From Verrucomicrobiota bacterium (GTDB lineage: Bacteria > Verrucomicrobiota > Verrucomicrobiia > Limisphaerales > Palsa-1400), in the NCBI GenBank assembly GCA_049510745.1, contig JBEKYR010000002.1, positions 128,001 through 192,000 on the forward strand: 64,000 nucleotides of DNA, in the 5' to 3' direction. The notes beneath the pieces are model-generated. The model was given only the letters and a program-made list of their open reading frames with translations. It did no database searches and was not told the DNA's origin. Positions 33,606-53,530 of this stretch are shown here, piece by piece. Positions within the stretch are counted from its first letter, which is position 1, and each line of letters starts with the position of its first letter. A program made the position numbers and the translations under genes.

Positions 33606-33893
33606 GCGAGCCTCCTTCCAGCGCCCGCGGGCTGCCTGAGATTTTGCCTGTTTCTCCCCTGTGATCCGCTGTTCTCAATGCGTCTTGCGCTTTTCATGTT
33701 GCCAGGAGCGTCGCTCAGGAAGGGAAAGATTAACTACACAAGCCTTGTGAAATGTTGGACATTTATTGGGCTGTTCTATGCCAAAGAGCCTGTCCAAAAT
33801 TCCGCCATTGGCCAAAAAATGGCCTGAGAATGGCAATTACCGTGGAGTCGGGGAACGGCCCCCCTTGTAAGTTGGCTGGCGAACTGGAAAACA

Positions 33894-34196
33894 ATGAAAG
33901 CGTTTGCCGAGATAATTCAATGGGATGACCGCACTCCGCCGGACGAAGAAAGACAGTGTCCGAAGCCGTTTACCTGCCCGCTCAGCCGCGTCCAAGCGGG
34001 GATGGCGGTGCGCATCACGGAGCTTTCCGCTCCGCCGGACGTGACCCGGCGCTTGCGGGAGATTGGGTTTGGCGAACAGCAGGTGATCAAACTGCTGATC
34101 CGTCAATCCAACCTGATTTGCCAGGTGTGCAACGCCCGCCTGGCTCTCAGTTCCCAACTCGCCCAGATGATTATCGTCGAGCCACTGCCGGCTTGA
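33894..34196 (+). CDS. FeoA-family SH3-like protein
   Basis: PLSRVQAG..RRLREIGFGEQ..RLALSSQLAQMIIVE. Confidence 0.78.
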   Translation: MKAFAEIIQWDDRTPPDEERQCPKPFTCPLSRVQAGMAVRITELSAPPDVTRRLREIGFGEQQVIKLLIRQSNLICQVCNARLALSSQLAQMIIVEPLPA

Positions 34197-34211
34197 ACGG
34201 ACCAAAACACC

Positions 34212-34583
34212 ATGAAGGTTGGACCTTACTTGTTCCTGGCGGTTTTCGGCCTGGCCGCAATGGTCTTCGCCCTCGCGCCGCTGGCCATCGCCTGGCTGTG
34301 GGCGCGGGCTTTCTCGCCCCGGACGCCCGGCGCGGTCAAAAACGCCATTTACGAGTGCGGCTTGGAATCCAAACCCACCGGCTGGGTGCAGTTCAAATCC
34401 GAATACTATCTCTACGGCATTATCTTTCTCATCTTCGATGTCGAAACGATTTTTTTGCTGCCCTTTGCCGTCGCCTTCAAGGGTCTCTCGTTGGGAGCGT
34501 GTCTGGCGATGTTGATTTTCATCCTCTTGCTGGCCGAAGGGCTTGCCTGGGCCTGGGCCAAGGGGGTATTGGCCTGGAAATGA
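34212..34583 (+). CDS. nuoA: Complex I subunit A
   Basis: YECG, FLIFDVE, three TM helices. Confidence 0.95.
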   Translation: MKVGPYLFLAVFGLAAMVFALAPLAIAWLWARAFSPRTPGAVKNAIYECGLESKPTGWVQFKSEYYLYGIIFLIFDVETIFLLPFAVAFKGLSLGACLAMLIFILLLAEGLAWAWAKGVLAWK

Positions 34584-34599
34584 ACGATGAACGGCTCCC

Positions 34600-35193
34600 A
34601 TGAACCAGGAACTTCAAAACAGGTTAAGCCGGCAGGGAGTGGTGCTCACCACGGTGGAGGAGCTTTACAACTGGGGCCGGAAGAATTCCCTGTGGCCGTT
34701 GCAGTTTGGCCTGGCCTGCTGCGCCATCGAGATGATCGCCGCCTCCATGGCGCGCTTTGACATGGCGCGTTTCGGCGCCGAGGTCTTTCGGCCCTCCCCC
34801 CGGCAGGCTGACCTGATGATCGTTTCCGGCACTGTCACCAAAAAAATGGCCCCGCAGGTCGTGCGTCTCTACAACCAGATGCCGGAGCCAAAATACGTCA
34901 TTGCCATGGGCGCGTGCGCCATTTGCGGCGGCCCCTTCCGGGACGGCTACAATGTGCTGCAAGGGATCGACCTTTATCTGCCGGTGGACGTTTATATCCC
35001 CGGTTGCCCGCCCCGGCCCGAAGCGCTGCTGGAGGGCCTGATGACCCTGCAACAAAAAATAGCGCGCCAGCGCCTCCAAGGCCCCGACCGCCCGCGCCAC
35101 CTGGAGGCCGACGCGCCCGGCGAATTTCCCGTTCCGCAATTCGGACCGCATGACCTTGTGGGGCCGCGCTTGCGCACACCCCAGGACACCTGA
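34600..35193 (+). CDS. nuoB: Complex I subunit B
   Basis: [22 protein letters not shown]. Confidence 0.96.
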
Positions 35194-35768
35194 TGCAAAC
35201 TCTGGAAGAAATCAAAGACCGCCTCAGCGGCCGCTTCCCGGCCGCCCGCCTGGAGGTCATCCCCAACGGCAGCCCGGCCCGGCAGCCGTCGCTGCTCCTC
35301 GACCACGAATACGCGCGGGAAATCGCCGGGTTTTTGCGCGACGATCCGGCGCTGCGCCTGGATTACGCCTCCAACGTCACGGGCGTGGACTGGCCGGAAA
35401 GGGTTGTCAAAGAGAAAGTCAAGGTCAGGAAGATCATTGACGGCGTGGAGAAGGAAACCGAGGAACTGGTCGCGCGGAAAATCCCGGGATTCCTCGAAGC
35501 CGTCTATCATCTCTATTCCATGGCGCTCGGTCACGGGCCGCTGGTGATCCGGCTGCGCACCGGCAATCGAACCGACCGCGTCGCGCTGCCCTCGCTGACG
35601 CCCATCTGGCGCAGTTGCGAGTTCCAGGAACGGGAGATCTTCGATCTTTTTGGCATCCAATTCCAAGGGCATCCCGATCTGCGCCGCATCCTGATGTGGG
35701 ACGGGTTCGCCGATCATCCCATGCGCAAGGACTATGTGCCGGCCGATCACCAGGAGGCCCGGCCATGA
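35193..35768 (+). CDS. nuoC: Complex I subunit C
   Basis: [28 protein letters not shown]. Confidence 0.95.
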
Positions 35769-36916
35769 TCGCGCCGCCGCCGGAACCTCAGACCCCGGCC
35801 CTCGGTGAGGCCGCCGACCACGATCTCCTCGAAGTGGCGATGGGGCCGCACCACCCCTCCACTCACGGCGTTTTTCGGATGAATGTTGTTCTGGACGGCG
35901 AAAGGGCCGTCAAACTGACGCCGGTATTCGGCTACCTCCATCGCAACCACGAAAAGATCGCGGAGAAGAACAGCTACCTGGCGTCCATCCCCTACACCGA
36001 CCGGCTGGATTACATCTGCTCGATGACCAATAACTGGGCCTATGTCCTGAGCGTGGAGAAGCTGGCCGGGCTGGCCGTGCCGGAGCGCGCCGAATACATT
36101 CGAGTCATCGTCGGCGAACTCACCCGCCTGTTCAACCACGCGTGTCTGGCGGGATTCCTCTTGCAGGACATGGGCGCGTCGGGCACGCCCCTGATGTACG
36201 CCTTTCGCGAGCGGGAAAAAATCCTCGACCTCTTCGAAGCGTTGAGCGGCTCGCGCATGATGTGCAATTACATGCGCTTCGGCGGCTGCCGCTGCGACTT
36301 TCCGCCCGGCTGGCTGGAAGAGGCCGCCAAAGTCGCGGCCGGTTTCGATGCCTTCCTCGACGAGTTCGAGGCGCTTCTGAGCGAGAACGAAATCCTCCGC
36401 GCGCGCTGCGAAGGCGTGGGCGTGCTCCCGCGCGATCTGGCGGTCAACGCCGGCGTCACCGGCCCGGGCTTGCGGGCCAGCGGAGTCAATTACGACATCC
36501 GCAAAGTGGACCAGTATGGAATTTACAGCCGCTTCAAATTCCGCGTGCCGCTCGGCCAGCGGGGGGACGTTTTTGATCGTTACATGGTGCGGATTCTCGA
36601 AATGCGGGAATCCCTCAGGATTCTCGGCCAGGCCCTGCATGACCTTCCCGCCGGAGCGATCCTCGATCCCAAATTCAAACTGCGCAATCTCCGCCCCAAA
36701 CCCGGCGAAGCCTACGGGCGGATCGAAGCGCCCAAAGGCGAATTGGGCTTCTACCTCATCAGCGACGGCGGGCCCGCGCCTTATCGTTACCGGGTCCGTC
36801 CTCCCAGTCTGATCAATCTGACCGTCCTCGAAGATATGTGCCTGGGCCATACGATTGCGGATGTGGTCATTATCCTGGGCAGCATCGACATCGTGCTCGG
36901 GGAGGTGGATCGCTAA
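35765..36916 (+). CDS. nuoD: Complex I subunit D
   Basis: [33 protein letters not shown]; no NiFe CxxC motifs. Confidence 0.96.
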
Positions 36917-37476
36917 TGCTGGGGCGCGGCATCCTTCGAGGGCTGATCGAGACGGGGCGGAATTTCTGCGGCAGCTATTATGACCCCGCCCGGCTGACCA
37001 CCGTGCAGTACCCGGAGGAGACACTTCCGCCGCTGGAAAACGCGCGCACGATTCCTTTTCTGGTCTATGATGGCAACGATCCTCTCGACGGGTTGCGCTG
37101 CACGGCTTGCACCATTTGCGCGCTGGAATGCCCGGCCCATTGCATCGAAATCGTCAAGGACACCGCAAAAAAACCTGATTACCTGGGCAAAATGCAAATA
37201 CAGCCCAAGGTCTTCGACATCGACATGGCCGTCTGCATGGAGTGCGGCATCTGCGCGGAAGTGTGCCCGTTCGATTCCATCAAAATGGACCGGGTCTTCG
37301 AGTTGGCCGGCGAGGATCGCCGGATGATATTGCACAAGGCGGACCTGGCCAAATCCAACGAGTACTTTCGCGAAATCCATCCCGCCGAAGCCGCCGCTGT
37401 GGATGCCGCGCGCGCCGAAGAACAACGGAAGGCGCAAGCCAAAAAAATCGCCGCCACCGTCCCAACCCCGGCATGA
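36916..37476 (+). CDS. nuoI: Complex I subunit I (2x 4Fe-4S)
   Basis: TVQYPEE, CTACTICALECP, CMECGICAEVCP. Confidence 0.93.
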   Translation: MLGRGILRGLIETGRNFCGSYYDPARLTTVQYPEETLPPLENARTIPFLVYDGNDPLDGLRCTACTICALECPAHCIEIVKDTAKKPDYLGKMQIQPKVFDIDMAVCMECGICAEVCPFDSIKMDRVFELAGEDRRMILHKADLAKSNEYFREIHPAEAAAVDAARAEEQRKAQAKKIAATVPTPA

Positions 37477-38663
37477 ACGCCCTGGACCAAATTTTTATTT
37501 CAGTGCAACACGGGCTGGCGGGCCTGGCTCCGGCGTCCATGCGGCCCCTGGTGTTGGCGCTGCTCAACATCGCGGGCCTCATGGCGGCGTTTGGAACCTG
37601 CTTTGCCCTCACCACCATCCTCGAGCGCAAAATCCTGGGCCGGATGCAAAATCGCTTCGGCCCCAATCGCGTCGGGCCTTTCGGTTTGCTGCAGCCGTTG
37701 GCCGACGGCGTCAAGATGCTGATCAAAGAGGACATTGTTCCTTTTTCCGCCGATCATGCGGTGCATTTTCTCGCGCCGCTGGCGCTGACCGTGCCGGTTT
37801 GGCTGGCCTTCGCCGTTTTGCCTTTCGGACGCAACATGAGCGCCGTTGAACTGGACGCCGGGATTCTTTTCTTTTTTGCCATTGGGTCCGCCTCCGAACT
37901 GGCGGTCTTCATGGCGGGATGGTCGAGTCAAAACAAATACTCGCTGGTGGGCGCGATGCGGGCGATCGCGCAAATGATCAGCTACGAAGTTCCGTTGGTG
38001 CTGGCCAGCGTTCCGGTGGTGATGGCGGCCGGTTCGTTGTCATTGCCGGACATTGTCCAGGCCCAATCCGGCTGCGCCCTGGGCTGGGTGCCGCGATGGA
38101 ACGTGTTCACGCCCTGGGGTCTGGCCGGGTTCGCGCTCTTCCTGATCGCCGCCGCCGCCGAATCCAACCGTTGCCCGTTTGACCTGCCGGAAGGGGAATC
38201 CGAGTTGATCGCCGGCTATCTGACCGAGTATTCCGGTTTCAAATACGCTCTGTTTTTCCTCGGAGAATACCTCGGTCTTTTCGCCGTAACCGGCCTGGGC
38301 GTGACCCTGTTTCTGGGAGGATGGCAGGCGCCGGCCAAATGGCTGGAATGGCTGCCGTCCTGGGGCTGGTTCGCCGCAAAATTCAGCGCGTTGATTTTTC
38401 TTTTCATCTGGGTGCGGGCGACCCTGCCGCGATTGCGCCTGGACCAACTGTTGAATTTCGCCTGGAAGCTTCTTGTCCCGCTCGCCCTGATCAACCTGTT
38501 CGTCGCCGGCGCCTGGTTGAAAAGCGGCGCGTGGCATTTTCCCGCGGCGTTGGAAATTCGCTGGCTGCTCTGCGCGGCCCTCCTGGCGGTACCCTATGTC
38601 TGGTTCGGCCGAAGCTGGAAAGGCCCGATGGCCAAAGAACGCCAATATAGTTATGCTGAATGA
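37473..38663 (+). CDS. nuoH: Complex I subunit H
   Basis: ERKILGRMQNRFGPNRVG, QPLADGVK, PFDLPEGESEL, EYSG. Confidence 0.96.
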   Translation: MNALDQIFISVQHGLAGLAPASMRPLVLALLNIAGLMAAFGTCFALTTILERKILGRMQNRFGPNRVGPFGLLQPLADGVKMLIKEDIVPFSADHAVHFLAPLALTVPVWLAFAVLPFGRNMSAVELDAGILFFFAIGSASELAVFMAGWSSQNKYSLVGAMRAIAQMISYEVPLVLASVPVVMAAGSLSLPDIVQAQSGCALGWVPRWNVFTPWGLAGFALFLIAAAAESNRCPFDLPEGESELIAGYLTEYSGFKYALFFLGEYLGLFAVTGLGVTLFLGGWQAPAKWLEWLPSWGWFAAKFSALIFLFIWVRATLPRLRLDQLLNFAWKLLVPLALINLFVAGAWLKSGAWHFPAALEIRWLLCAALLAVPYVWFGRSWKGPMAKERQYSYAE

Positions 38664-39222
38664 GATCGCATTTTATCTGGCCGCCGGCCTGACCGTGGCC
38701 TTCGCCGTCGCCGCCATGACCCTGCGTCACCTGGTGCATTGCGCCTTGTGCGCCGCCGCCGCTTTTGGCGGTCTGGCCGTGATCTATTTGCAGCTCGACG
38801 CGGAGTTTGTGGGATTTGCCCAACTGCTGGTTTATGTGGGGGCGATCGCCATTCTGATCGTCTTTGCCATCCTGTTGACACGCGGCGATGAAGTCCGCCC
38901 GGGCCGCAGCCAGGCGTCGCCTTCCTGGATGACGGGGGTCGCGGCCGCCGCGCTGGTGCTGGCCGGAATCGCCCTGCCGATTCTCAGCAGCCCCAGTCTG
39001 CAACGCGGCGCCCCACCCGCGGCGGTGGCGCCGGTGAAAAAAATCGGGGAGGAATTGATGACCCGTTACGTCCTGCCGCTGGAGACAGTGGGGGTTCTGT
39101 TGACCGGCGCGTTGCTGGGAGCGGTCGTCATCGCCCTGCGCGAGGAATCCGAAGTCAAACCCCGGACCCGCTCGCCGGCGACACCGCGCGTCGAAACCGG
39201 GGAGGCGATCAACCTGCCATGA
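38653..39222 (+). CDS. nuoJ: Complex I subunit J
   Basis: [21 protein letters not shown]. Confidence 0.93.
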
Positions 39223-39533
39223 ACACGCCCCTCTCCCATTATCTGATTCTCTCCGCGTTGCTCTTTGGCATCGGTTTCGCGGGCGCGGTCGCCCGTCGCA
39301 GCGCCATCCTTGTGCTGATCGGCATCGAACTGATGCTCAACGCCGCGAACCTGAATTTCATCGCGTTCTGGCGCTACGGCCCCCACGCCGAAGCATTGAC
39401 CGGCGTGCTGTTCGTCCTTTTTTCCATCGCCATCGCGGCCGCCGAGGCGGCGGTGGGCCTGGCGTTGGTCATTGCCATCTACCGTCAACGAAAAACCGCG
39501 CAGGTCGATGCTTTGGATGCGCTCAAAGGTTGA
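39219..39533 (+). CDS. nuoK: Complex I subunit K
   Basis: [21 protein letters not shown]. Confidence 0.96.
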
Positions 39534-39536
39534 GAC

Positions 39537-41561
39537 ATGGAACCCATCGTCCAATATCTCTGGTTGATTCCGGCGATCCCGCTGGTCATGGCGGGATGGG
39601 GCGCGTTGCTCACGCGCGACCGGCGGCGGCTGGCCGCTTGGCTGGCCATTGGCGGGATGGCTCTTTCCTGGTTGCTCTCCTGCGCCGCGTTTTTGACCAG
39701 CTTGAGCGCGCGTCCCTTCCGCCAGACCTGGAGTTTTCGCTGGTTTGATCTGGCCAATACTTCCGTGCCCCTGGGCTGGGTGCTGGACCCGTTGACCGCC
39801 GTCATGCTGATGATGGTGGCGTTTCTGTCGCTGCTCATTTTCATTTACAGCCTCGGCTACATGGCGCGCGACGACAATTTCACCCGGTTCTTCTGTTTTA
39901 TGTCGCTCTTCGGCGCCGCCATGCTCGGCCTGGTCATCGCCAACAGCCTTCTATTGCTGTTCATTTGCTGGGAACTGGTTGGGTTGTCGTCCTACCTGCT
40001 CATTGGTTTCTGGTATGAAAGACCGGCCGCCGCGGCCGCGGCGAAAAAAGCGTTTATTACCACGCGCATCGGCGACCTCGGACTCCTGCTCGGAATGCTC
40101 TGGCTCTATTCCCAAAGCGGCACGCTGCTCTTTTACGACCACGGCCACGGCTGCCTGGAAGCCTCCTCGCTGGCGCGCCTGGTGGCCGGCACGACCTTGG
40201 GCGGCATGGCTGTCTCGACTGCCATCTCCCTCCTGATTTTTGCCGGCGCCGTTGGCAAATCCGGCCAGGTGCCCTTGCACGTCTGGCTCCCGGACGCGAT
40301 GGAAGGTCCGACGCCGGTCAGCGCGCTCATTCACGCGGCCACCATGGTGGCGGCGGGAGTGTTTCTGGTCGCCCGCATGTATCCGCTGATGAGCGCCGGT
40401 CCTCATCCGGCCGCGCTCCAAGTCGTCACCTGGGTGGGGGCCATCACCGCGGTCTTTGCCGCCGCCATCGCTGTCGCGCAGAACGACATCAAGCGAATCA
40501 TCGCTTATTCCACGATTTCGCAATTGGGTTACATGATGCTGGGGCTGGGAGTGGGCGGGGTGGCCGTCGGCATGTTTCATCTGATTACGCACGCCTTTTT
40601 CAAATCGCTCCTGTTCCTCGGCGCCGGTTCCGTCATTCACGGCTGCAACGGCGAACAGGACATCCGAAAAATGGGTGGCCTGAAAAAACTCATGCCCTGG
40701 ACTTTCGCGACTTACGCCGTCGGCATGATGGCGCTGTGCGGCGTGCCGCTGTTTTTTTCGGGTTTTTGGAGCAAGGACGAAATCCTGCGCGCGGCGTGGG
40801 ATTGGCCCGTTTCCGCGGTCCCGTTTTGTCTCGGCGTGGCCGGCGCGTTTCTGACGGCATTTTATATGACGCGGCAGGTGAGCTGGGTGTTCTTCGGCAA
40901 ACCGGCGGAGGCCGAAGGTTCCCCTGCTCCCGCGCACGAAAGTCCACCGGTGATGACGATCCCGCTGGTCATCCTCGCGGTCTTCGCCGTGCTGGCCGGT
41001 TTTTTGGGAACGCCGGCCTGGCCGTGGTTCCATGCTTTCTTAAATGGAGAAAGCACCCCGTTCGCGCCTGCGGCTCTTGTGGCCCGCCCGCAACTCAATC
41101 TGATGCTGCTTTCCACCCTGGTCGTGGGCACGGCTCTGTTCGTGGGCTGGAAAATCTATTCCAAAGTCGCCGTCCAAAGTTTCCGGGAGACTGATCCGCT
41201 GGAGAAATCTCTGCCGGCTCTCTTTCGATTGCTCCAGAATAAATTCTTCATCGACGAACTTTATGCCGCGACGGTGCTGCGGCTGAACGCGGCCTTTGCG
41301 GCGTGCGCCGACTGGCTGGATCGCGTGATTTGGGCGGGCGCGGTCAACGCGGTTTCGGGGTTGACGGTCGTGTGCGCGCAGATCAACCGCGCCCTTGACG
41401 AATTCGGGGTCAATGCCGGATTCGATTTCGGCTGCGAAGGATTGCGCGGCACGGGAAGTCTCCTGTCGTGGATGCAAAACGGCCGCGTCCAGCGCTATTT
41501 GCGAATCGTGGGCCTGGCGTTCAGTCTTCTGGTGCTGGCCTTGCTCGGGGGGTGCGCATGA
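39537..41561 (+). CDS. nuoL: Complex I subunit L with lengthened C-terminal amphipathic helix
   Basis: WLPDAMEGPTPVSALIHAATMV, HAFFK, SGFWSKDEI. Confidence 0.96.
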   Translation: MEPIVQYLWLIPAIPLVMAGWGALLTRDRRRLAAWLAIGGMALSWLLSCAAFLTSLSARPFRQTWSFRWFDLANTSVPLGWVLDPLTAVMLMMVAFLSLLIFIYSLGYMARDDNFTRFFCFMSLFGAAMLGLVIANSLLLLFICWELVGLSSYLLIGFWYERPAAAAAAKKAFITTRIGDLGLLLGMLWLYSQSGTLLFYDHGHGCLEASSLARLVAGTTLGGMAVSTAISLLIFAGAVGKSGQVPLHVWLPDAMEGPTPVSALIHAATMVAAGVFLVARMYPLMSAGPHPAALQVVTWVGAITAVFAAAIAVAQNDIKRIIAYSTISQLGYMMLGLGVGGVAVGMFHLITHAFFKSLLFLGAGSVIHGCNGEQDIRKMGGLKKLMPWTFATYAVGMMALCGVPLFFSGFWSKDEILRAAWDWPVSAVPFCLGVAGAFLTAFYMTRQVSWVFFGKPAEAEGSPAPAHESPPVMTIPLVILAVFAVLAGFLGTPAWPWFHAFLNGESTPFAPAALVARPQLNLMLLSTLVVGTALFVGWKIYSKVAVQSFRETDPLEKSLPALFRLLQNKFFIDELYAATVLRLNAAFAACADWLDRVIWAGAVNAVSGLTVVCAQINRALDEFGVNAGFDFGCEGLRGTGSLLSWMQNGRVQRYLRIVGLAFSLLVLALLGGCA

Positions 41562-43108
41562 AAACGTTTCCCCTCCTCACTCTTCTGACTCTGATCCCGC
41601 TGATCGGCGGCGCGGCGACGTTGCTGGCATCCAGTCAATCAAAGCTCGCCCGGCGCGTCGCCTTCCTCACCAGCCTGCTGGCGCTGGCCGTGGCGGCGCT
41701 GCTGTGGGCCGCGTTTGACACCGGCCGCGCCGGCTGGCAATTCGTCGAGCGTTTCGCCTGGGTGCCGTCGCTGGGCATCGATTACCACCTGGGCATCGAT
41801 GGATTGGGGCTTTTGATGGTGCTGCTGTCGGCGTTGCTCGTTCCGTTTGCCATGCTCGCTTCGTGGAACATCGGGCAGAATCCGAAACTTTATTTCGCGC
41901 TGATTCTGTTTTTGGAAGCCGGCTTGTTCGGCACGTTCACTGCGCTGAACTTTTTCCATTGGTTCATCTATTGGGAACTGGGCCTGATTCCGGCGTATTT
42001 CCTGATCAAAATCTGGGGCGGCCCCCGCCGCACGCGGGCGGCGAACCAATTCTTCATTTACACGCTGGCCGGCAGCGTGGCGATGCTCCTGGCGTTCCTG
42101 GCCCTTTACGCCGCGACGGGACTGTTCGACTTCGGACAACTGGCCGAACTGGCCCGCAACGGCGGCCTCGACAACGCGCTGTTCGCCAAGCTGGGCGGTT
42201 CCTTTTTCAAGTCCAGGGAAACGCTGGCCACGGTCATTTTTCTGGGCGTGTTCCTCGGGTTTGCGGTGAAGGCGCCGCTCATGCCTTTCCATACCTGGCT
42301 GCCCTCCGCTTACGCCGAAGCGCCCACCGGCACGGCCATGCTGCTGACGGGTGCGATGTCGAAAATGGGCGTCTATGGATTCCTGCGCATTTTGCTGCCG
42401 CTGTTTCCGGCGCAAATGCGCGCCCTGCAAACGCCTCTGCTCTGTCTGGCGGTGGCCACGATTGTTTTTTCGGCGGCGGCGGCCCTGGCCCAGCGCGATT
42501 TGAAACGGATGGTGGCTTATTCCTCGATCAATCACGTCGGTTACTGCCTCCTGGGAATTTTTGCCGCGGTGCAGATCACCGGCACGACCGCTGCCTGGAC
42601 CACTGAAAAGGCCGCCGCCCTCAACGGCGTCATGCTGCAAATGTTCAACCACGGGTTGACGGCCGCGGCGCTGTTTTATTTTGTCGGCCTGATCGAGCAG
42701 CGCAGTGGCGGCCTGCGCGGCCTGGACGATTTTGGCGGCCTGCGCAAAGCAGCGCCGGTTTTTTGCGGGTTGATGGGCATCACTTTGTTCGCCTCGCTCG
42801 GTCTGCCCGGCCTGAATGGATTTGTCAGCGAGTTTCTGATCTTCAAAGGTTCCCTGCCGCTGGTGGGGTGGGCGGCGGCGGTCTCGACCCTCGGTTTGCT
42901 GATCACGGCGATTTTTCTGCTCGCCATTTTGCAGCGCGTGTTCAGCGGGCCTTTGCAGAATCGCTGGGCCGGCTGGAAGGACCTGACGACCGGTGAACGG
43001 CTCACGGTGGCGCCGGTCATCGCGCTGATGCTTTTGCTCGGAATATGCCCGCAAATTCTTATCAGCGTGGCCAACCCGGCCGCTCTGGCGATCTTGAAAC
43101 TCTTTTGA
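41558..43108 (+). CDS. nuoM: Complex I subunit M, copy 1
   Basis: PFHTWLP, KMGVYG, AYSSINH, GLPGLNGFVSE. Confidence 0.93.
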   Translation: MKTFPLLTLLTLIPLIGGAATLLASSQSKLARRVAFLTSLLALAVAALLWAAFDTGRAGWQFVERFAWVPSLGIDYHLGIDGLGLLMVLLSALLVPFAMLASWNIGQNPKLYFALILFLEAGLFGTFTALNFFHWFIYWELGLIPAYFLIKIWGGPRRTRAANQFFIYTLAGSVAMLLAFLALYAATGLFDFGQLAELARNGGLDNALFAKLGGSFFKSRETLATVIFLGVFLGFAVKAPLMPFHTWLPSAYAEAPTGTAMLLTGAMSKMGVYGFLRILLPLFPAQMRALQTPLLCLAVATIVFSAAAALAQRDLKRMVAYSSINHVGYCLLGIFAAVQITGTTAAWTTEKAAALNGVMLQMFNHGLTAAALFYFVGLIEQRSGGLRGLDDFGGLRKAAPVFCGLMGITLFASLGLPGLNGFVSEFLIFKGSLPLVGWAAAVSTLGLLITAIFLLAILQRVFSGPLQNRWAGWKDLTTGERLTVAPVIALMLLLGICPQILISVANPAALAILKLF

Positions 43109-43111
43109 GTT

Positions 43112-44599
43112 ATGCTGGCCTGGACCATTTACATTTCATTTTTGGGCGCGGCGGCGCTGGCGCTTCTGCCGCCGGAGAGCCGGCGCGCGGCGCGGATCAC
43201 GGCGCTGCTGACGGCTTTGGCGGGGCTGGCCGTCGCGCTGGGCGGCGCGGCGCAGTACGAGCGCCAGACCCCGTCCGGCGCGCTGGTGGACCTGGCCAAT
43301 GTTTCGTGGATTGCGGACCTGGGCATCCGCTATCACCTGGCGGCGGACGGCGTGAGCATCACGCTGGTGTTGCTGACCGGCATTGCGGCGGTCGCGGGCG
43401 TGTTGTTTTCGTGGAACATCGAGCGCCGCGTCCGGGAGTTTTTCGCGCTCTATCTGGCGCTCATCGGCGGCGTCTATGGAGTGTTTCTGAGCTTCGATCT
43501 GTTTCTCCTGTTCGTCTTTTACGAAATCGCCATCATCCCGAAATACTTCCTCATTGCCGTCTGGGGATCGACCCGGCGCGAATACGGCGCGATGAAACTG
43601 GCGCTCTATTCGTTGGTGGGCAGCGCGATGGTGTTGATCGGCTTGATCGCCGCCTACGTCGTCTCCGGGGCGCAGACGTTCGATTTGATCGAACTGGCGA
43701 AATTTCCGTTCCCGGTCGCGTTTCAAAACTGGGCTTTCCTGCTGGTGTTTGTTGGCTTTGCGATCCTGGCTGGTCTTTGGCCGTTCCACACTTGGGCGCC
43801 GACCGGCCACGTCGCCGCGCCCACCGCCGCCTCCATGTTGCTGGCCGGGGTGGTGATGAAACTGGGCGCTTACGGCGCGTTGCGCGTGGCCATGACGCTT
43901 TTCCCGGACGGACTGCGCACCTGGCAAAATGAGATCGCCCTGCTGGCTGTCATCGGCATCGTCTATGGCGCCACGGTCGCGCTGGTGCAACGGGACATCA
44001 AATTCGTCATCGGCTATTCCAGCGTCAGCCACATGGGCTTTGTCTTGCTCGGCCTGATGACCCTTTCTCAAATCGGCCTGAGCGGCGCCGTGCTGCAAAT
44101 GTTTTCCCACGGCATTATCGCCGGACTTCTCTTTGCGGTGGTGGGGCGGATGATTTACGACCGCACCCATACCCGTGAACTGAGCGAACTTCAGCCGATG
44201 AATCTCAGCGTGCTGGCGCCCTTTGCGGCGGTCACCTTTGTGGTCGCGGGCGCCGCGTCCATGGGTCTGCCCGGTTTCAGCGGGTTTATCGCTGAATTGC
44301 AGGTGCTCACGGGCGCCTGGCAGGTCTTTCCGCGCCTGACTATTCTCGCCGGCGTCGGAATTCTTGTCGGCATCGCCTTCATCGTGCGCGTCTGGATCAA
44401 GGCTTTTTTTGCGGAGAACGACACGCAAGCCGCCGCCATCCAGATCGAACCCATTTCCATTCCCGAACGGGCTGGCGCGTATGTGCTGCTGGCAACCACC
44501 GTCCTCATCGGCCTTTGGCCCGGTTTGCTCCTGGATTTGATTACGCCGACGCTCCAATCGCCCCTGTTCCAACCGCTCTGGAAAGGAGGCCCGCCATGA
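43112..44599 (+). CDS. nuoM: Complex I subunit M, copy 2
   Basis: PFHTWAP, KLGAYG, YSSVSHMG, GLPGFSGFIAE. Confidence 0.92.
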   Translation: MLAWTIYISFLGAAALALLPPESRRAARITALLTALAGLAVALGGAAQYERQTPSGALVDLANVSWIADLGIRYHLAADGVSITLVLLTGIAAVAGVLFSWNIERRVREFFALYLALIGGVYGVFLSFDLFLLFVFYEIAIIPKYFLIAVWGSTRREYGAMKLALYSLVGSAMVLIGLIAAYVVSGAQTFDLIELAKFPFPVAFQNWAFLLVFVGFAILAGLWPFHTWAPTGHVAAPTAASMLLAGVVMKLGAYGALRVAMTLFPDGLRTWQNEIALLAVIGIVYGATVALVQRDIKFVIGYSSVSHMGFVLLGLMTLSQIGLSGAVLQMFSHGIIAGLLFAVVGRMIYDRTHTRELSELQPMNLSVLAPFAAVTFVVAGAASMGLPGFSGFIAELQVLTGAWQVFPRLTILAGVGILVGIAFIVRVWIKAFFAENDTQAAAIQIEPISIPERAGAYVLLATTVLIGLWPGLLLDLITPTLQSPLFQPLWKGGPP

Positions 44600-46083
44600 A
44601 CCCGTCTTTGGACTGGATGATTCCGCTGATTCCCGAAGAAATCATCATCGGGTTCGCGCTGGCAGTGCTGGCGCTGGATTTTGCCATCGTGCGGCGGAAA
44701 AATCTGGCCGTCCGCGCGGCAGTGATTGGCACGACGGCTTGTTTGGGTTGCGTGGCGGCCATGATCTGGATCGCGCGCGGGCCGGATGCCGGGGCGGCCG
44801 AAATGCTGGCGCTGACTCCGCTCACCCAGTTTTTAAAATTGGTGCTGCTCGCCTTGACCCTGGTGGTCGCGCTGCTGTCGTTTGGCGCGCGTTTTTCGCG
44901 GCACGTCGGCGAGTATTTTGCGCTGCTGCTCATGGCCACCGCCGGTTTGATGCTGCTCATCAGTTCGGAAAATCTTTTGATGATTTTTATCGCGCTCGAA
45001 CTGCTCAGCGTCCCGCTTTATGTCCTGACGGCCTTTAACAAGAGCAGTCCGGCGTCGGCCGAGGCGGCCCTGAAATACTTTCTCTTCGGCAGCGTGGCGG
45101 CGGCGTTCACGCTCTTTGGCATCAGCCTCCTCTATGGGCTGGCCGGCGATCTGCAACTCGCATCGCTGGCCGAAAAACTGAGAACTCAGCCGGTCGAGCC
45201 GGTTTGTTATGCCGCCCTGGTCATGACTCTGACCGGCTTCGCCTTCAAAGTGGCGGCGGCGCCGTTTCATTTCTGGGCGCCGGATGTCTATCAGGGCGCG
45301 CCGGCGCCGATCGCCTGTTTCATCGCTTCCGGCTCAAAGGTGGCCAGCTTCTTTGTCCTGGCACGAATCATCGTCGAGGGCTTTGGCCCGTGGCACGGCA
45401 GCGCCGTCTGGGAAGGGTTTCGGGCGGGATGGATGCCGCTGCTGGCGGTGTTGGCGGTGTTCTCGATGGTCGCGGGCAACATGGCCGCGCTCGTGCAGAC
45501 CAGCGTGAAACGGTTGCTCGCCTATTCGGCCATCGCCCACGCGGGCTATGCGTTGCTGGCCTTTTTTGGCAACGCGCAGCAGATGCTGCCGGCGCTCTTC
45601 TTTTATGTCATCACTTACGCGCTGACCGTGCTGGGAGCGTTTGCGGTGGTGGCGGCGGTTGAAAACAGCGGCAGCCGCGATCGGCTGGCCGATTGGGCCG
45701 GGCTGGGCCGGCGCGCGCCTCTGCTCTCCGCGTGCATGTTTGTCTTCATGCTCTCGCTGGCGGGCATTCCGCCGCTCTCCGGTTTCTTCGGCAAGTTCTA
45801 TCTCTTCACGGCGGCGGCGGCGGGCCAGCCTCATTTGGGCATGCTGTGGCTGGTCATCGTGGCGGTGGGCGCCAGCGCGGTTTCGCTCTATTACTATCTG
45901 CAAGTGCTCAAGCAGATTTACGCCGCCGAACCTCCCGCCGGCTCCAAACCCTTTTGCCCGCCCTATGCCGCGCTGCTGCCCATCGCGCTGCTGGCCGGCC
46001 TCGTCATCGCCTTTGGTTGCGCGCCCGGCTGGTTGCTGGGACAACTTTCCATGGTCCTGAACTCTTCCGCTTTCCGATTATGA
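44596..46083 (+). CDS. nuoN: Complex I subunit N
   Basis: EAALKYF, PFHFWAPDVYQGAP, KRLLAYSAIAHAGY, GIPPLSGFFGK. Confidence 0.95.
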   Translation: MNPSLDWMIPLIPEEIIIGFALAVLALDFAIVRRKNLAVRAAVIGTTACLGCVAAMIWIARGPDAGAAEMLALTPLTQFLKLVLLALTLVVALLSFGARFSRHVGEYFALLLMATAGLMLLISSENLLMIFIALELLSVPLYVLTAFNKSSPASAEAALKYFLFGSVAAAFTLFGISLLYGLAGDLQLASLAEKLRTQPVEPVCYAALVMTLTGFAFKVAAAPFHFWAPDVYQGAPAPIACFIASGSKVASFFVLARIIVEGFGPWHGSAVWEGFRAGWMPLLAVLAVFSMVAGNMAALVQTSVKRLLAYSAIAHAGYALLAFFGNAQQMLPALFFYVITYALTVLGAFAVVAAVENSGSRDRLADWAGLGRRAPLLSACMFVFMLSLAGIPPLSGFFGKFYLFTAAAAGQPHLGMLWLVIVAVGASAVSLYYYLQVLKQIYAAEPPAGSKPFCPPYAALLPIALLAGLVIAFGCAPGWLLGQLSMVLNSSAFRL

Positions 46084-49000
46084 ATGCATCTCCCAAAATC
46101 CAAAGCCCGCCCGCCGCTCCCTTCGTCACGCTGGACGGGAACGAGGCCGCCGCTTCCGTCGCTTACCGCCTGACCGAAACGATCGCCATCTACCCGATTA
46201 CGCCCTCCTCGCCCATGGCCGAATGGTGCGACCAATGGTCGGCGGCGGGCCGGCCTAATTTATACGGCACTGTGCCCCGCCTGGTCGAAATGCAGTCGGA
46301 AGCCGGGGCCGCCGGCGCCCTGCACGGGATGGTGCAAGTCGGCTCGTTGAGCACAACCTTCACCGCCTCGCAGGGCCTGCTGCTGATGATCCCCAGCATG
46401 TACAAAATCGCCGGCGAACTTCTTCCCTTCTGCATGCACGTGACCGCCCGCACCCTGGCCACGCACGCCCTCTCCATTTTTGGCGATCATTCCGATGTCA
46501 TGGCGTGCCGGCAAACCGGCTTTGCCCTGCTTTCCTCCGGTTCGGTGCAGGAGGCGCAGGATTTGGCCTGCATCGGCCATGCCGCCACGCTCGAATCGCG
46601 GGTGCCGTTCCTGCATTTCTTTGACGGTTTCCGCACCTCGCACGAAGTGGCCAAGATTCGCTTGCTGACCGACGACCAATTGCGCCAGATGATGGACCAG
46701 TACGACCTGTGCCTCCAGGCCTTCCGTCATCACGGCCTGTCTCCGGACCGGCCCTGCATTCGCGGCACGGCCCAGAACCCCGACGTTTTCTTTCAGGCGC
46801 GGGAAGCGTGCAATCCTTTTTATGACCGCACGCCCGGCATCGTCCAGGAGGCCATGAACCGCTTCGCCGGGATCACCGGGCGCCAATACCGGTTGTTTGA
46901 TTACGCCGGCCATCCCCAGGCCGAGTGCGTGCTGGTCATCATGGGTTCGGGCGGCGAAACCGCGCAACAAACGGCCGAGTGGCTCCATCAGGGCGGCGAA
47001 AAAACCGGAGTGTTGAGAGTGCGCCTCTATCGGCCATTCTCGATTGAAGCCTTTGTCGGCGCGCTGCCTCCGACCACGCGCCGCCTGGCTGTGCTCGACC
47101 GCACCAAGGAACCGGGCGCGGTCGGGGAACCGCTTTATGTCGATACCGTGGCGGCCTTGCGCGAAGCTTGCGACAGAGGGCTGGCGTCCTTTGACGCCGA
47201 ACCGGCCGTGGTGGGCGGGCGTTACGGCCTCTCTTCCAAGGAATTCACGCCGGCGATGGTCAAATCTATTTTCGATGAACTCCGGCAAAAGCGCGCGCCG
47301 AAGAATCATTTTACGACCGGCATTGTCGATGATGTCACCCACACGTCGCTGCCCTTTGACGCGGAGTTTGACATCGAGCCGCCAGAGGTGGTGCGGGCGG
47401 TCTTTTTCGGACTGGGCGCGGACGGCACCATCGGCGCCAACAAGAACTCCATCAAGATCATCGGCGAGGAAACCGACCTCCATGCGCAGGGTTATTTCGT
47501 CTATGACTCCAAAAAAGCCGGCGCCGTCACCATCTCGCATCTGCGCTTCGGGCCGCATCCCATCCATTCCCCCTATCTGCTCAAGGAGGCGGACTTTGTC
47601 GCCTGCCATCAATGGCCGTTTTTGGACCGTTACAACGTGCTCGATTACGCGAAGGAGGGCGCGACGCTGCTGCTCAATTCGCCGCACGGCCCGGAGTCTG
47701 TCTGGAACCATTTTTCCGTCGAGATTCAGCGGGAAATCATCGCCAAGAAACTCAAATGCTACGTGATCGACGCCTACCCGGTGGCCAAGGCCGCCGGCAT
47801 GGGCGGGCGCATCAATACGATCATGCAGACGTGCTTCTTCGCCATTTCCAACGTGCTCTCGCGCGCCGAGGCGATTGAGCAGATCAAGAAGGCGATCCGC
47901 AAAACTTACGCCCGCAAAGGCGAGGCGGTCGTGGCCCAAAACTTCGCGGCGGTGGACCAAACCCTGGCCGCCTTGCACGAGGTCGTCATTCCCGAAGCCG
48001 TTTCCGCCGAACGCCATCAGGCGCCGATGGTTCCGGCGGAGGCGCCTGATTTTGTGCGGCGGATCACCGCGCTCATGCTGGCCAACAAGGGCGATTTGCT
48101 GCCCGTCAGCGCGTTTCCGGTGGATGGCACGTGGCCTTCCGGGACCACGCGCTGGGAAAAACGGGCCATTGCGCTGGAAATTCCCGAATGGGACCCGGCC
48201 ATTTGCATTCAGTGCAACAAATGCGTCCTGGTTTGCCCGCACGCCGCCATCCGGGCCAAGTTTTATCCCGCCGGCCTGGCCGCCAACGCCCCGGCCCATT
48301 TCAAATCCACCGCCTTTCGCTCGCAGGAATGGAAGGACTCCAAATACACGCTGCAAGTGGCGCCGGAAGATTGCACCGGCTGCACGCTGTGCGTGGCGGT
48401 TTGCCCGGTGAAATCAAAAACCGACCCGAAACAAAGAGCGATCAACATGCGGCCGATGCCCCCGTTGCGCGACCAGGAGGTTGTCAACTATGAATTCTTC
48501 CTCAAGCTGCCTTCCCCCGACCGCGCGCGCCTGGCGCTGGACGTCAAAGGGACGCAATTCCGGGAGCCGCTCTTCGAGTATTCGGGGGCGTGTTCGGGCT
48601 GCGGCGAAACGCCCTATCTCAAACTGCTCACCCAGATGTCGGGCGACCGGCTGATCGTGGCCAACGCCACCGGCTGCTCCTCCATTTACGGCGGCAACCT
48701 GCCGACGACTCCTTACACCGTCAACAGCGCCCATCGCGGCCCGGCTTGGTCCAATTCGCTCTTCGAGGACAACGCCGAGTATGGTTTTGGCCACCGGGTG
48801 GCGCTGGACAAACAAACTGAATTCGCCCGCGAACTGGCGCGGAAACTGGCGCCGCAACTGGGCGGGGAACTGGTCGATGAATTGCTCGGCGCCAAACAAG
48901 ATGACGAAGCGCAGATCTTCGCGCAACGCGAGCGGGTGTGCGAATTGCGCCGGCGCCTGCAAGGCTTGGACGCGCCGGAAGCCGCCGTCCTGCACGGCCT

Positions 49001-49694
49001 GGCGGACGCGCTGGTCAGCAAATCGGTCTGGATTGTGGGCGGCGACGGCTGGGCCTATGACATCGGTTTCGGCGGCCTGGACCATGTCATCGCCATGAAC
49101 GCGAAGGTCAACATTCTTGTGCTTGACACTGAGGTTTATTCCAACACCGGCGGGCAACAGTCCAAGGCGACGCCCCGGGGGGCGGCCGCCCGGTTCGCCG
49201 TTTCCGGCAAACGCATGGGCCGCAAGGACCTTGGGCTGATGGCCATGACTTACGGCACGGCCTACGTGGCCCAGATCGCGCTCGGCTCGAAGGACTCGCA
49301 AACGGTGAAAGCCTTCGAGGAAGCCGAGTCGTATCCCGGCACCTCGCTCATCATCGCCTACAGTCCGTGCATCGAGCATGGATACGCGCTTGGGCTGAGC
49401 CTGGAGCAGCAGAAACTGGCGGTCGATACCGGCTTCTGGCCGCTCTACCGGTTCGATCCGCGGCGCCTGGCGGCGGGCCAGCCGGGATTGAAACTGGATT
49501 CCGCGGCGCCCAAGATTCCGCTGGAAAAATTCTGGGCGACGGAACGCCGTTTCCAAGCCATCGCCAGCCAGGACCCGGCGCAGAGCAAAGCGATACTTGA
49601 CGCAGCGCAGGACGAGGTCCTGGGCCGGTTCGCCCTTTACGAAAGGATGTCCACCCAGCCGGTGGCGCCGGCCAAGCTTGTGCAGGCGAAGTGA
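46080..49694 (+). CDS. nifJ: Pyruvate:ferredoxin/flavodoxin oxidoreductase (single-chain, NifJ type)
   Basis: DGNEA, YPITP, FFDGFRTSHE, CIQCNKCVLVCP, CTGCTLCVAVCP, GACSGCGE, GGDGWAYDIG; ATGA overlap with nuoN. Confidence 0.96.
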   Translation: MNASPKIQSPPAAPFVTLDGNEAAASVAYRLTETIAIYPITPSSPMAEWCDQWSAAGRPNLYGTVPRLVEMQSEAGAAGALHGMVQVGSLSTTFTASQGLLLMIPSMYKIAGELLPFCMHVTARTLATHALSIFGDHSDVMACRQTGFALLSSGSVQEAQDLACIGHAATLESRVPFLHFFDGFRTSHEVAKIRLLTDDQLRQMMDQYDLCLQAFRHHGLSPDRPCIRGTAQNPDVFFQAREACNPFYDRTPGIVQEAMNRFAGITGRQYRLFDYAGHPQAECVLVIMGSGGETAQQTAEWLHQGGEKTGVLRVRLYRPFSIEAFVGALPPTTRRLAVLDRTKEPGAVGEPLYVDTVAALREACDRGLASFDAEPAVVGGRYGLSSKEFTPAMVKSIFDELRQKRAPKNHFTTGIVDDVTHTSLPFDAEFDIEPPEVVRAVFFGLGADGTIGANKNSIKIIGEETDLHAQGYFVYDSKKAGAVTISHLRFGPHPIHSPYLLKEADFVACHQWPFLDRYNVLDYAKEGATLLLNSPHGPESVWNHFSVEIQREIIAKKLKCYVIDAYPVAKAAGMGGRINTIMQTCFFAISNVLSRAEAIEQIKKAIRKTYARKGEAVVAQNFAAVDQTLAALHEVVIPEAVSAERHQAPMVPAEAPDFVRRITALMLANKGDLLPVSAFPVDGTWPSGTTRWEKRAIALEIPEWDPAICIQCNKCVLVCPHAAIRAKFYPAGLAANAPAHFKSTAFRSQEWKDSKYTLQVAPEDCTGCTLCVAVCPVKSKTDPKQRAINMRPMPPLRDQEVVNYEFFLKLPSPDRARLALDVKGTQFREPLFEYSGACSGCGETPYLKLLTQMSGDRLIVANATGCSSIYGGNLPTTPYTVNSAHRGPAWSNSLFEDNAEYGFGHRVALDKQTEFARELARKLAPQLGGELVDELLGAKQDDEAQIFAQRERVCELRRRLQGLDAPEAAVLHGLADALVSKSVWIVGGDGWAYDIGFGGLDHVIAMNAKVNILVLDTEVYSNTGGQQSKATPRGAAARFAVSGKRMGRKDLGLMAMTYGTAYVAQIALGSKDSQTVKAFEEAESYPGTSLIIAYSPCIEHGYALGLSLEQQKLAVDTGFWPLYRFDPRRLAAGQPGLKLDSAAPKIPLEKFWATERRFQAIASQDPAQSKAILDAAQDEVLGRFALYERMSTQPVAPAKLVQAK

Positions 49695-51116: not shown

Positions 51117-53530
<2,414 letters not shown>

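Follow-up and report, generated by a model that had tools for sequence, protein, structure and literature searches.

Gene content and order of the locus

The window analysed here, a 64,000-nucleotide stretch from a member of the verrucomicrobial family Palsa-1400, holds on its forward strand the gene order feoA-nuoABCDIHJKLMMN-nifJ, in which the nuo genes and nifJ make up 13 open genes (Table 1). The order from nuoA to nifJ had been recognised in a sequence-only reading and was borne out, as was its view that an NADH module and a ferredoxin gene are missing: we found no nuoE, nuoF or nuoG within the operon (34212-49694) and no ferredoxin gene inside feoA-nuo-nifJ. A FeoA-domain gene, absent from that reading, lies 15 bases upstream of nuoA and is the operon's first gene in the host subclade. 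Against TIGR01972, whose cut-off is 263.8 bits, the two nuoM genes score 485 and 450, and nifJ scores 1716 against TIGR02176 (cut-off 911). When aligned with the canonical NuoB of the host genome, the operon's NuoB shows a C-terminal extension that the canonical protein lacks.

Table 1. Features of the operon and its surroundings, in window coordinates
Feature	Position	Strand	Basis or remark
Divergent cluster: hemA, multiheme cytochromes c, porin, NrfC/NrfD-like modules	7868-33605	-	Context, outside operon
Putative outer-membrane porin	24201-26327	-	Within divergent cluster
Possible sigma-54-type (-24/-12) promoter, GG-N10-GC	33820-33836	+	Sequence; upstream of feoA
feoA (FeoA-domain protein)	33894-34196	+	PF04023, E 8e-10
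nuoA	34212-34583	+	NCBIfam NuoA models, below cut-off
nuoB	34600-35193	+	TIGR01957 above cut-off
nuoC	35193-35768	+	PF00329
nuoD, short form	35765-36916	+	
nuoI, two 4Fe-4S motifs	36916-37476	+	
nuoH, placed after nuoI (inverted order)	37473-38663	+	NF004741 above cut-off
nuoJ	38653-39222	+	
nuoK	39219-39533	+	
nuoL, 674 aa	39537-41561	+	
nuoM, nuoL-proximal (added copy), 516 aa	41558-43108	+	TIGR01972
nuoM, nuoN-proximal, 495 aa	43112-44599	+	TIGR01972
nuoN	44596-46083	+	TIGR01770 above cut-off
nifJ, single-chain PFOR, 1204 aa	46080-49694	+	TIGR02176

The stop codon of nuoN and the start codon of nifJ share an ATGA (46080-46083), from which translational coupling had been proposed. The overlap is real but unremarkable, because, of the 13 junctions between feoA and nifJ, nine show overlaps of 1, 4 or 11 bases, and coupling is something we infer from gene spacing. 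Fifteen relatives carry nuoN and nifJ in a single locus; the gap between them is -4 in seven, +2 to +10 in another seven and about 2.4 kb in one. Co-transcription of nifJ with the nuo genes is almost certain. An open reading frame of 1333 aa (45693-49694) was considered as a NuoN-PFOR fusion and rejected, as it merely extends an open frame upstream, and the ATG at 46080 agrees with the relatives.

Ahead of feoA lies a possible sigma-54-type promoter, its GG-N10-GC spacing being what we take to be the consensus; both pairs are retained in 7 of 11 aligned upstream regions on inspection by eye, and the host genome encodes rpoN. A general scan for promoters and terminators was uninformative, returning four promoter-like sites where 3.6 were expected and many chance sites within genes; it also returned nothing resembling a terminator downstream of nifJ or where nuoN meets nifJ.

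A 2M complex I and its two NuoM subunits

The 2M form of complex I is said to have been first described by Chadwick, Hemp, Fischer and Orphan in 2018 (ISME J 12:2668). In the sections covered of four later papers, its traits are a second NuoM between nuoL and nuoN and a NuoL helix HL about 26 residues longer, and described members have a missing or incomplete NADH module, as in the 12-gene cluster of Chloroflexus aggregans and in Nitrospira CI_1, which is without nuoE, F and H (PMC9040806, PMC7117926, PMC6606698, PMC8004040). All three features recur here: two full-length nuoM genes, whose products are 33% identical, stand between nuoL and nuoN, and helix HL is 26 residues longer than in NdhF1 (6hum_F) and 27 longer than in the host genome's canonical NuoL. 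The lengthened spacing was found in 50 of the 51 NuoL orthologs measurable by motif search (49 of 100 were not measurable), and key charged residues are invariant across 100 NuoL, 109 NuoN and 110 nuoL-proximal NuoM orthologs, those of NuoL and NuoN being located by motif under residue labels that we presume correct. Judged by its sequence, and by the helix in particular, the operon encodes a true 2M complex I without an NADH module, as had been claimed. Set against the described complexes, as far as those sections present them, it differs in its order ABCDIHJKLMMN, with nuoI before nuoH, in having nifJ last and in a nuoN-proximal NuoM without Lys234.

The same nuo operon is widespread across Verrucomicrobiota and Acidobacteriota, and neither 40 loci from relatives nor 80 from a wider scan gave any match to nuoE, nuoF or nuoG. 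Its content, NuoA-D and NuoH-N, is that of the 11-subunit ferredoxin-fed complex I-like enzymes plus an extra NuoM, and it lacks the NuoEFG of the canonical 14-subunit NADH:quinone oxidoreductase. A 2M complex I of this kind is already known; here its operon ends in a gene for pyruvate:ferredoxin oxidoreductase (PFOR).

The two NuoM copies differ at conserved residues. In E. coli numbering, the nuoL-proximal copy retains E144, K234, K265 and E407, each in 110 of 110 orthologs, with H248 replaced by Tyr. The nuoN-proximal copy retains E144, K265, E407 and four His, but has Leu219 in place of K234 (Lys in 0 of 112 orthologs) and has gained Lys144 at the site equivalent to E. coli residue 150 (Lys in 112 of 112). 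Its sister in the tree is the canonical verrucomicrobial NuoM, which likewise lacks Lys234 and has His/Asn directly before the Glu, whereas the 2M copy has Lys six residues after it. The refuting condition named in that reading, a degenerate NuoM, applies only to the missing lysine: since the canonical sister lacks it too, the nuoN-proximal protein is no decayed copy, and conservation over orthologs together with the tree marks the loss as an old lineage trait. A phylum-wide search for canonical NuoM, with too strict a cut-off, returned 4 of 151 genomes.

Pumping models depend on the Lys of the Lys/Glu pair, according to the part of PMC5938582 covered, and the extra proton of 2M complexes, making five H+ per two electrons, is a hypothesis in the part covered of PMC6606698. 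Five protons are therefore uncertain for a complex in which one NuoM lacks that Lys. Titles and abstracts yielded no paper on a natural NuoM without Lys234, and we found no mention of NuoM position 150 or 234 in PMC11496545 or PMC13220270. Both NuoM patterns can be recreated in E. coli complex I and would provide tests of coupling models.

Electron supply and direction

By its sequence, the nifJ product is an ordinary single-chain NifJ-type PFOR, with POR_N, PFOR_II, POR, EKR, 2x4Fe-4S and TPP domains in one chain, including the 2x[4Fe-4S] domain of its own that the sequence-only reading had named. It is colinear over residues 14-1192 with 6cin, which we take to be the Moorella thermoacetica enzyme, and with 7plm, presumably, like 1b0p, that of Desulfovibrio africanus. 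Its length is normal, with neither an extra domain nor a docking extension. It differs from these two in closing a complex I operon and in a six-residue basic insertion after Cys775, a loop shared by unlinked verrucomicrobial PFORs.

On the side of the complex, NuoI has a Lys-rich loop between its two 4Fe-4S motifs (K81, K85, K86 and K92, which are Lys in 51, 49, 49 and 52 of 56 sequences), and the basic NuoD loop 303-312 aligns with the NdhH Lys315/Lys321 region, K305 falling on K321. In cyanobacterial NDH-1 the ferredoxin contacts are NdhI K86/K89/K91 and NdhH K315/K321, in the part covered of PMC7021789. The NuoI/NuoD apex fits that basic ferredoxin pocket in sequence pattern, the likeness of NuoI to NdhI being one of pattern and not of residue-by-residue alignment. 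Further likenesses to NDH-1L are the lack of NuoEFG (PMC7021789, part covered) and the PDB matches, among which NdhF1 was best for NuoL and NdhH second best for NuoD. NDH-1L differs in having NdhO, S and V, which have no equivalents in this operon, and in using plastoquinone and a 2Fe-2S ferredoxin, where the present complex would use menaquinone and probably a single-cluster ferredoxin; the present complex also has four antiporter subunits.

A suitable carrier is encoded on another contig of the host (C45, 4664-4894): an acidic single-cluster ferredoxin with 15 Asp/Glu against 6 Lys/Arg. Of 61 genomes, 60 encode this ferredoxin, whether or not they have the 2M operon, but in 26 of the 60 relatives its gene lies instead 1.6-3.6 kb behind the canonical nuoM, so that its pairing with the 2M complex is tentative. 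As for the quinone, the host genome has two PF02621 genes of the futalosine pathway and no classical menD over cut-off. Neither RnfD nor nifH was found in this genome, which is 94% complete.

We regard it as probable that the product is a ferredoxin:menaquinone oxidoreductase whose genes share a transcript with that of the enzyme reducing its ferredoxin and adjoin a porin-cytochrome cluster. PFOR is a likely electron source for the complex, and a small soluble ferredoxin, not direct docking, most likely connects the two; PFOR would be one donor among several and no subunit. In the host family, a standard PFOR gene would have been appended to the operon's end, so that the enzyme reducing ferredoxin and the complex spending it would be made together, probably under low oxygen. 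Pyruvate would be oxidised by PFOR, an enzyme class assigned from sequence, with reduction of the presumed partner, the small acidic ferredoxin. By analogy with NDH-1, this would bind the basic NuoI/NuoD pocket and hand its electrons on to menaquinone by way of N6a, N6b and N2. The long NuoL helix evident in the sequence would clamp four antiporter subunits, and the ferredoxin-to-menaquinone span could fund up to five H+ per two electrons, a hypothetical stoichiometry. A similar route from PFOR through ferredoxin to the complex has been proposed for Desulfitobacterium, whose 11-subunit complex also lacks an NADH module and uses menaquinone, with PFOR the main candidate donor and ferredoxin the proposed shuttle, on the evidence of co-expression and rotenone growth tests (PMC11238625, part covered); here a single operon encodes PFOR and the complex, which has a fourth antiporter subunit. 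In the literature covered, both the donor of 2M complexes and the number of protons they pump are hypothetical, and an operon ending in PFOR lends gene-order support to ferredoxin as the donor in the forward direction.

PFOR is reversible, and the complex might instead run mainly in reverse, with proton motive force pushing menaquinol electrons up to ferredoxin, for use by PFOR as pyruvate synthase or for other low-potential needs; in this direction a fifth proton would be most helpful. Such a role has been hypothesised for Nitrospira 2M complexes (PMC6606698, PMC9040806, parts covered). However, nifH was not found in the host genome, and cultured members of the order Limisphaerales are described, in the part covered of PMC13608581, as sugar-using heterotrophs without growth on H2/CO2, which makes this reading unlikely. 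A search for ATP-citrate lyase was uninformative, its controls also giving no match.

We give somewhat less credence to an NADH dehydrogenase that borrows NuoEFG, or a NuoF-like protein, with PFOR a co-regulated passenger. The host does encode nuoE, F and G elsewhere (contig C15), as the sequence-only reading had allowed for, and a second PF01512 match on contig C29; but the C15 genes sit within a complete 14-subunit nuo operon of their own (nuoB-N among its genes), and the short NuoD lacks about 26 residues found in Thermus Nqo4 between 308 and 332, a stretch that we assume contacts NuoG. Energetics point the same way: with the potentials assumed here, electron transfer from NADH to menaquinone would release about 47 kJ/mol, which covers some 3 H+ at 150 mV, against 67-73 kJ/mol from ferredoxin, so that the ferredoxin span fits an extra pump and the NADH span does not.

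Linkage of PFOR to the operon

The sequence-only reading had suggested that PFOR may take the place of NuoEFG as input module, and docking of PFOR on NuoI/NuoD would give a stable pyruvate:menaquinone oxidoreductase in the host family. The operon's lack of a ferredoxin gene and PFOR's own 2x4Fe-4S domain suit this idea, and so does the linkage within the family, where nifJ follows nuoN in 15 of 20 scorable genomes. The link spans seven genera including the host's, with PFOR identities of 68-88%, and all but one of the 15 gaps measured fall between -4 and +10, a persistence that physical partnership would explain as well. Linked PFORs also form their own group, with 52 columns distinguishing them from four unlinked ones. 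Yet the link occurs in 0 of 13 scorable genomes of sister families and, among the 63 loci that could be scored in the wider scan, in just 1, which belongs to the host subclade. Among close relatives, feoA directly precedes nifJ with no nuo genes between in G012 and G017, the PFOR ortholog is encoded elsewhere in G010 and G025, and a PIN-domain module separates nuoN from nifJ in G011. Ten of ten further operon carriers tested encode 2-oxoacid:ferredoxin oxidoreductases, none adjoining the operon in mapped loci, and lineages without the link need a small carrier anyway. When ORFs lying up to 5 kb downstream of nuoN or 2.5 kb upstream of nuoA were clustered, no recurrent redox partner besides PFOR appeared (45 largest clusters, by eye).

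The proteins themselves speak against docking too: on the side where docking would occur, NuoI and NuoD have residues alike in linked and unlinked genomes, PFOR carries no added part, its basic loop also occurs in unlinked enzymes, and the presumed faces of PFOR and NuoI/NuoD are both basic. Of 79 longer NuoI homologs, 55 carry PF04060, a tethered FeS domain, whereas no PFOR domain is listed for any of them, the latter a weak negative. A complex prediction of PFOR 430-1195 with NuoI 1-165 (alignments for both) scored 0.00 with controls that did not fold, and has no bearing on binding. Replacement of NuoEFG by PFOR is not supported, and we judge stable docking very improbable. A compound version, in which a homodimeric PFOR docked on the NuoI/NuoD apex, five H+ per two electrons, a relocated ion-pair lysine and porin-cytochrome extracellular respiration all apply, seems to us just as hard to credit. 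By title and abstract, we found no paper that reports linkage of PFOR to a 2M operon for Verrucomicrobiota or Acidobacteriota, the founding 2M description lying outside this scope.

Under the preferred reading, with soluble ferredoxin as carrier, menaquinol may feed the adjoining NrfCD-like and porin-cytochrome proteins, as their linkage suggests. The divergent cluster holds two NrfC/NrfD-like modules and cytochromes c with 4 to 11 CxxCH each; 10% of the members of one cluster of porin look-alikes are annotated MtrB/PioB, a lead only. The link to hemA and the porin-cytochrome genes suggests a way in which heterotrophic Limisphaerales could oxidise pyruvate at the expense of Fe(III) or humic substances.

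Gene content and class of the operon

The feoA-nuoA-B-C-D-I-H-J-K-L-M-M-N-nifJ operon has every frame open, and both nuoM genes and nifJ passed curated cut-offs in a profile search. The names of its homologs suggest Verrucomicrobiota, order Limisphaerales. The gene order, the 2M content and the missing nuoE, F and G are real and had been described accurately in the sequence-only reading, which also drew attention to the ATGA overlap of the nuoN stop with the nifJ start; that overlap is present, but since nine of the 13 junctions from feoA to nifJ overlap, it marks an ordinary tight operon and nothing unusual.

Coordinates of features in the window and on other contigs of the source genome (G000)
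Feature	Location	Strand	Details
feoA-nifJ operon	window 33894-49694	+	includes nuoL-proximal nuoM (41558-43108) and nuoN-proximal nuoM (43112-44599)
Candidate extracellular electron transfer cluster	window 7868-33605	-	hemA, multiheme cytochromes, putative porin, P-type ATPase, two NrfC/NrfD-like modules
NrfD fused to cNMP-binding domain	window 15074-17155	-	part of one NrfC/NrfD-like module
hemA/feoA intergenic region	window 33700-33890		several blocks conserved in aligned upstream regions, among them a GG-N10-GC sigma-54-like site
539-residue protein	window 51117-52736		C-terminal cNMP-binding domain, N-terminal part unassigned; second gene beyond nifJ
Second PFOR region (L002)	C33:22000-42000		second PFOR, then dihydroorotate dehydrogenase-like gene, molybdopterin oxidoreductase, membrane hydrogenase-like cluster
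Single-cluster ferredoxin	C45:4664-4894		76 residues, 15 acidic and 6 basic
NuoI-like stretch (L005)	C10:9274-9345		24 codons, 92% identity to NuoI N-terminus, on separate contig from operon

When NuoL was aligned with NdhF1 (6hum_F), the offset stood at +10 before helix HL and at −16 after it, which corresponds to 26 inserted residues (27 against the canonical NuoL of the same genome). An HL insertion of about 26 residues is a mark of 2M complexes according to PMC9040806, citing Chadwick et al. (2018); that work is also cited in PMC7117926, PMC6606698 and PMC8004040. On the strength of this insertion, the operon is assigned by sequence to the known 2M complex I class. The label NUO11+M is defined in PMC4758237, and bioRxiv 10.1101/197269 describes MAGs of Acidobacteriota whose nuo operons have no EFG.

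A suspicion that one NuoM might be degenerate did not hold up. The nuoL-proximal copy keeps E144, K234, K265 and E407 (E. coli NuoM numbering) in all 110 orthologs. The nuoN-proximal copy, the better conserved of the two in nearly all loci, keeps E144, K265, E407 and four His; across its 112 orthologs, position 234 holds Leu (111) or Met (1) and never Lys, and position 150 is always Lys, both positions lying outside the scan motif used to collect orthologs. In a tree rooted on NuoN, this copy is sister (1.00) to canonical verrucomicrobial NuoM (L179-L201), in which K234 is missing from 21/21 sampled sequences, Glu144 is preceded by His (19) or Asn (2), and none has Lys at 150. Because the canonical sister also lacks K234, the loss is an older lineage trait that predates the 2M operon, and it extends to the sole NuoM of the genome's 14-subunit complex. 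The pumping model of PMC5938582 gives the Lys/Glu pair a central role. Two exclusive patterns thus occur in one lineage: His/Asn before Glu144 in canonical NuoM versus Lys150 in its 2M sister.

Distribution of the nuoN-nifJ link

Sixty relatives were searched with the first (nuoL-proximal) NuoM and NifJ as queries and the loci were then mapped. Within the family, 24 of 30 genomes carry a first-NuoM ortholog: PFOR, the nifJ product, follows nuoN in 15 (directly in 14; in G011 a 2.4-kb insert carrying a PIN-domain gene lies in between), other genes do so in five, and the contig ends too early to score in four. In other families, 19 of 30 genomes carry the ortholog, and PFOR follows nuoN in 0/13 carriers with at least 4 kb beyond nuoN, the remaining six being short or broken. 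A GTDB motif scan gave at least 120 matches, of which 80 with flanks were analysed and 40 short ones left out; by record title, the matches listed were mostly Acidobacteriota and Verrucomicrobiota, some titles being implausible. Among these matches listed, the 80 flanked loci contained nuoN in 78 cases, with at least 4 kb beyond it in 63, and nifJ followed in one of these 63, from the family's own subclade; nuoE, F and G were absent from all 80.

With six Nuo subunits, taken from loci that have three or more of the genes (sequences covering >75% of the query), a midpoint-rooted FastTree tree recovered the family as a single clade (1.00), inside which the unlinked G004, G010, G012, G017, G022 and G026 form a nested clade (1.00). 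The simplest reading, with low support on deeper branches, is that the PFOR link would have been gained once at the family base and lost later. In G012 and G017, hemA, feoA and nifJ stay together with no nuo gene in between. Carriers without a close NifJ need not be without ferredoxin reduction, as 10/10 further carriers tested encode 2-oxoacid:ferredoxin oxidoreductases.

In the same tree, acidobacterial 2M operons (L047-L126) nest among Limisphaerales sequences. Several Chthoniobacterales-type loci have nuoABCD inverted relative to nuoH-N, and insertions into the operon are frequent (L009, L017, L025, L029, L030, L031, L041): G003 has adenylate kinase and PPK2 genes between both nuoM genes, G011 and G025 have PIN or addiction modules after nuoN, and four genomes have other genes between nuoK and nuoL.

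Electron input to the complex

The PFOR tail was added at the level of the family, and it probably provides a ferredoxin source co-expressed with a ferredoxin:menaquinone pump. Two PF02621 genes point to a putative futalosine route to menaquinone, and besides another NifJ, which shares 60% identity and is encoded close to a membrane hydrogenase-like cluster, the genome has two further POR_N matches. As computed from potentials of −420 to −450 mV for ferredoxin, −320 mV for NADH and −74 mV for menaquinone, two electrons reaching menaquinone yield 67–73 kJ/mol from ferredoxin versus 47 from NADH, affording 4.6–5.0 and 3.3 protons, respectively, at 150 mV; a fifth proton is borderline with ferredoxin and out of reach with NADH. 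Neither RnfD nor nifH was found in the 94%-complete genome, and operation of the complex in reverse is unlikely. Slightly less likely still is a borrowed NADH module. The genome does encode nuoE, F and G, in a canonical nuoB-N operon on contig C15 (nuoA on C40).

The sequence-only reading proposed that PFOR may replace NuoEFG as the input module. PFOR aligns colinearly with enzymes of solved structure, and its basic loop after Cys775 is present in unlinked PFORs too. NDH-1 ferredoxin binds a basic pocket of NdhI K86/K89/K91 and NdhH K315/K321 (PMC7021789). NuoD K305 aligns with NdhH K321; the basic loop around it is conserved in 73 sequences, PFOR-linked or not. In NuoI, positions 81, 85, 86 and 92 are Lys in 49–52 of 56 sequences. 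An acidic ferredoxin would fit both basic partners (PFOR and NuoI/NuoD), whereas two basic faces would fit each other less. Among 79 longer NuoI homologs, 55 have a PF04060 FeS domain ending a long Ala/Pro-rich linker and none has a PFOR domain listed; the natural visitor of NuoI may therefore be a small mobile FeS unit. For the Desulfitobacterium 11-subunit enzyme, transfer from PFOR through ferredoxin to the complex is proposed in PMC11238625.

Two observations count against a ferredoxin shuttle: the 76-residue ferredoxin occurs irrespective of the 2M operon (60/61 genomes), often behind the canonical nuo operon (in 26/60 relatives, though not in G000, it closes the 14-subunit operon, 1.6–3.6 kb behind canonical nuoM), and the nuoN-nifJ link has been maintained across seven genera. 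Direct docking of PFOR on the complex is nonetheless the least probable reading, given no added PFOR domain and basic loops common to linked and unlinked genomes.

In a sister lineage (P0123-P0199; L112), the NuoI C-terminal Ala/Pro/Lys linker with its PF04060 domain is a possible tethered electron shuttle.

Divergent cytochrome and putative porin genes

The cytochromes divergent from the operon have 4 to 11 heme motifs each, and one cluster among the Atlas look-alikes of the 708-residue porin-like protein carries MtrB/PioB on 10% of its members. In 8/60 relatives (seven of the 15 PFOR-linked genomes plus G025) the porin-like gene shares a contig with nuoA and precedes it by ~8–12 kb; in G010 and G017 it is ~7–8 kb from nifJ. 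Of the remaining linked genomes, four have it on a separate contig, and in four it was not found. Porin-multiheme clusters in Verrucomicrobia and Fe(III) reduction by Limisphaera isolates with MK-7 are described in PMC5615132 and PMC13608581, respectively. The operon may feed a porin-cytochrome conduit. The region of the sigma-54-like site is also kept in G012, where feoA runs straight into nifJ.
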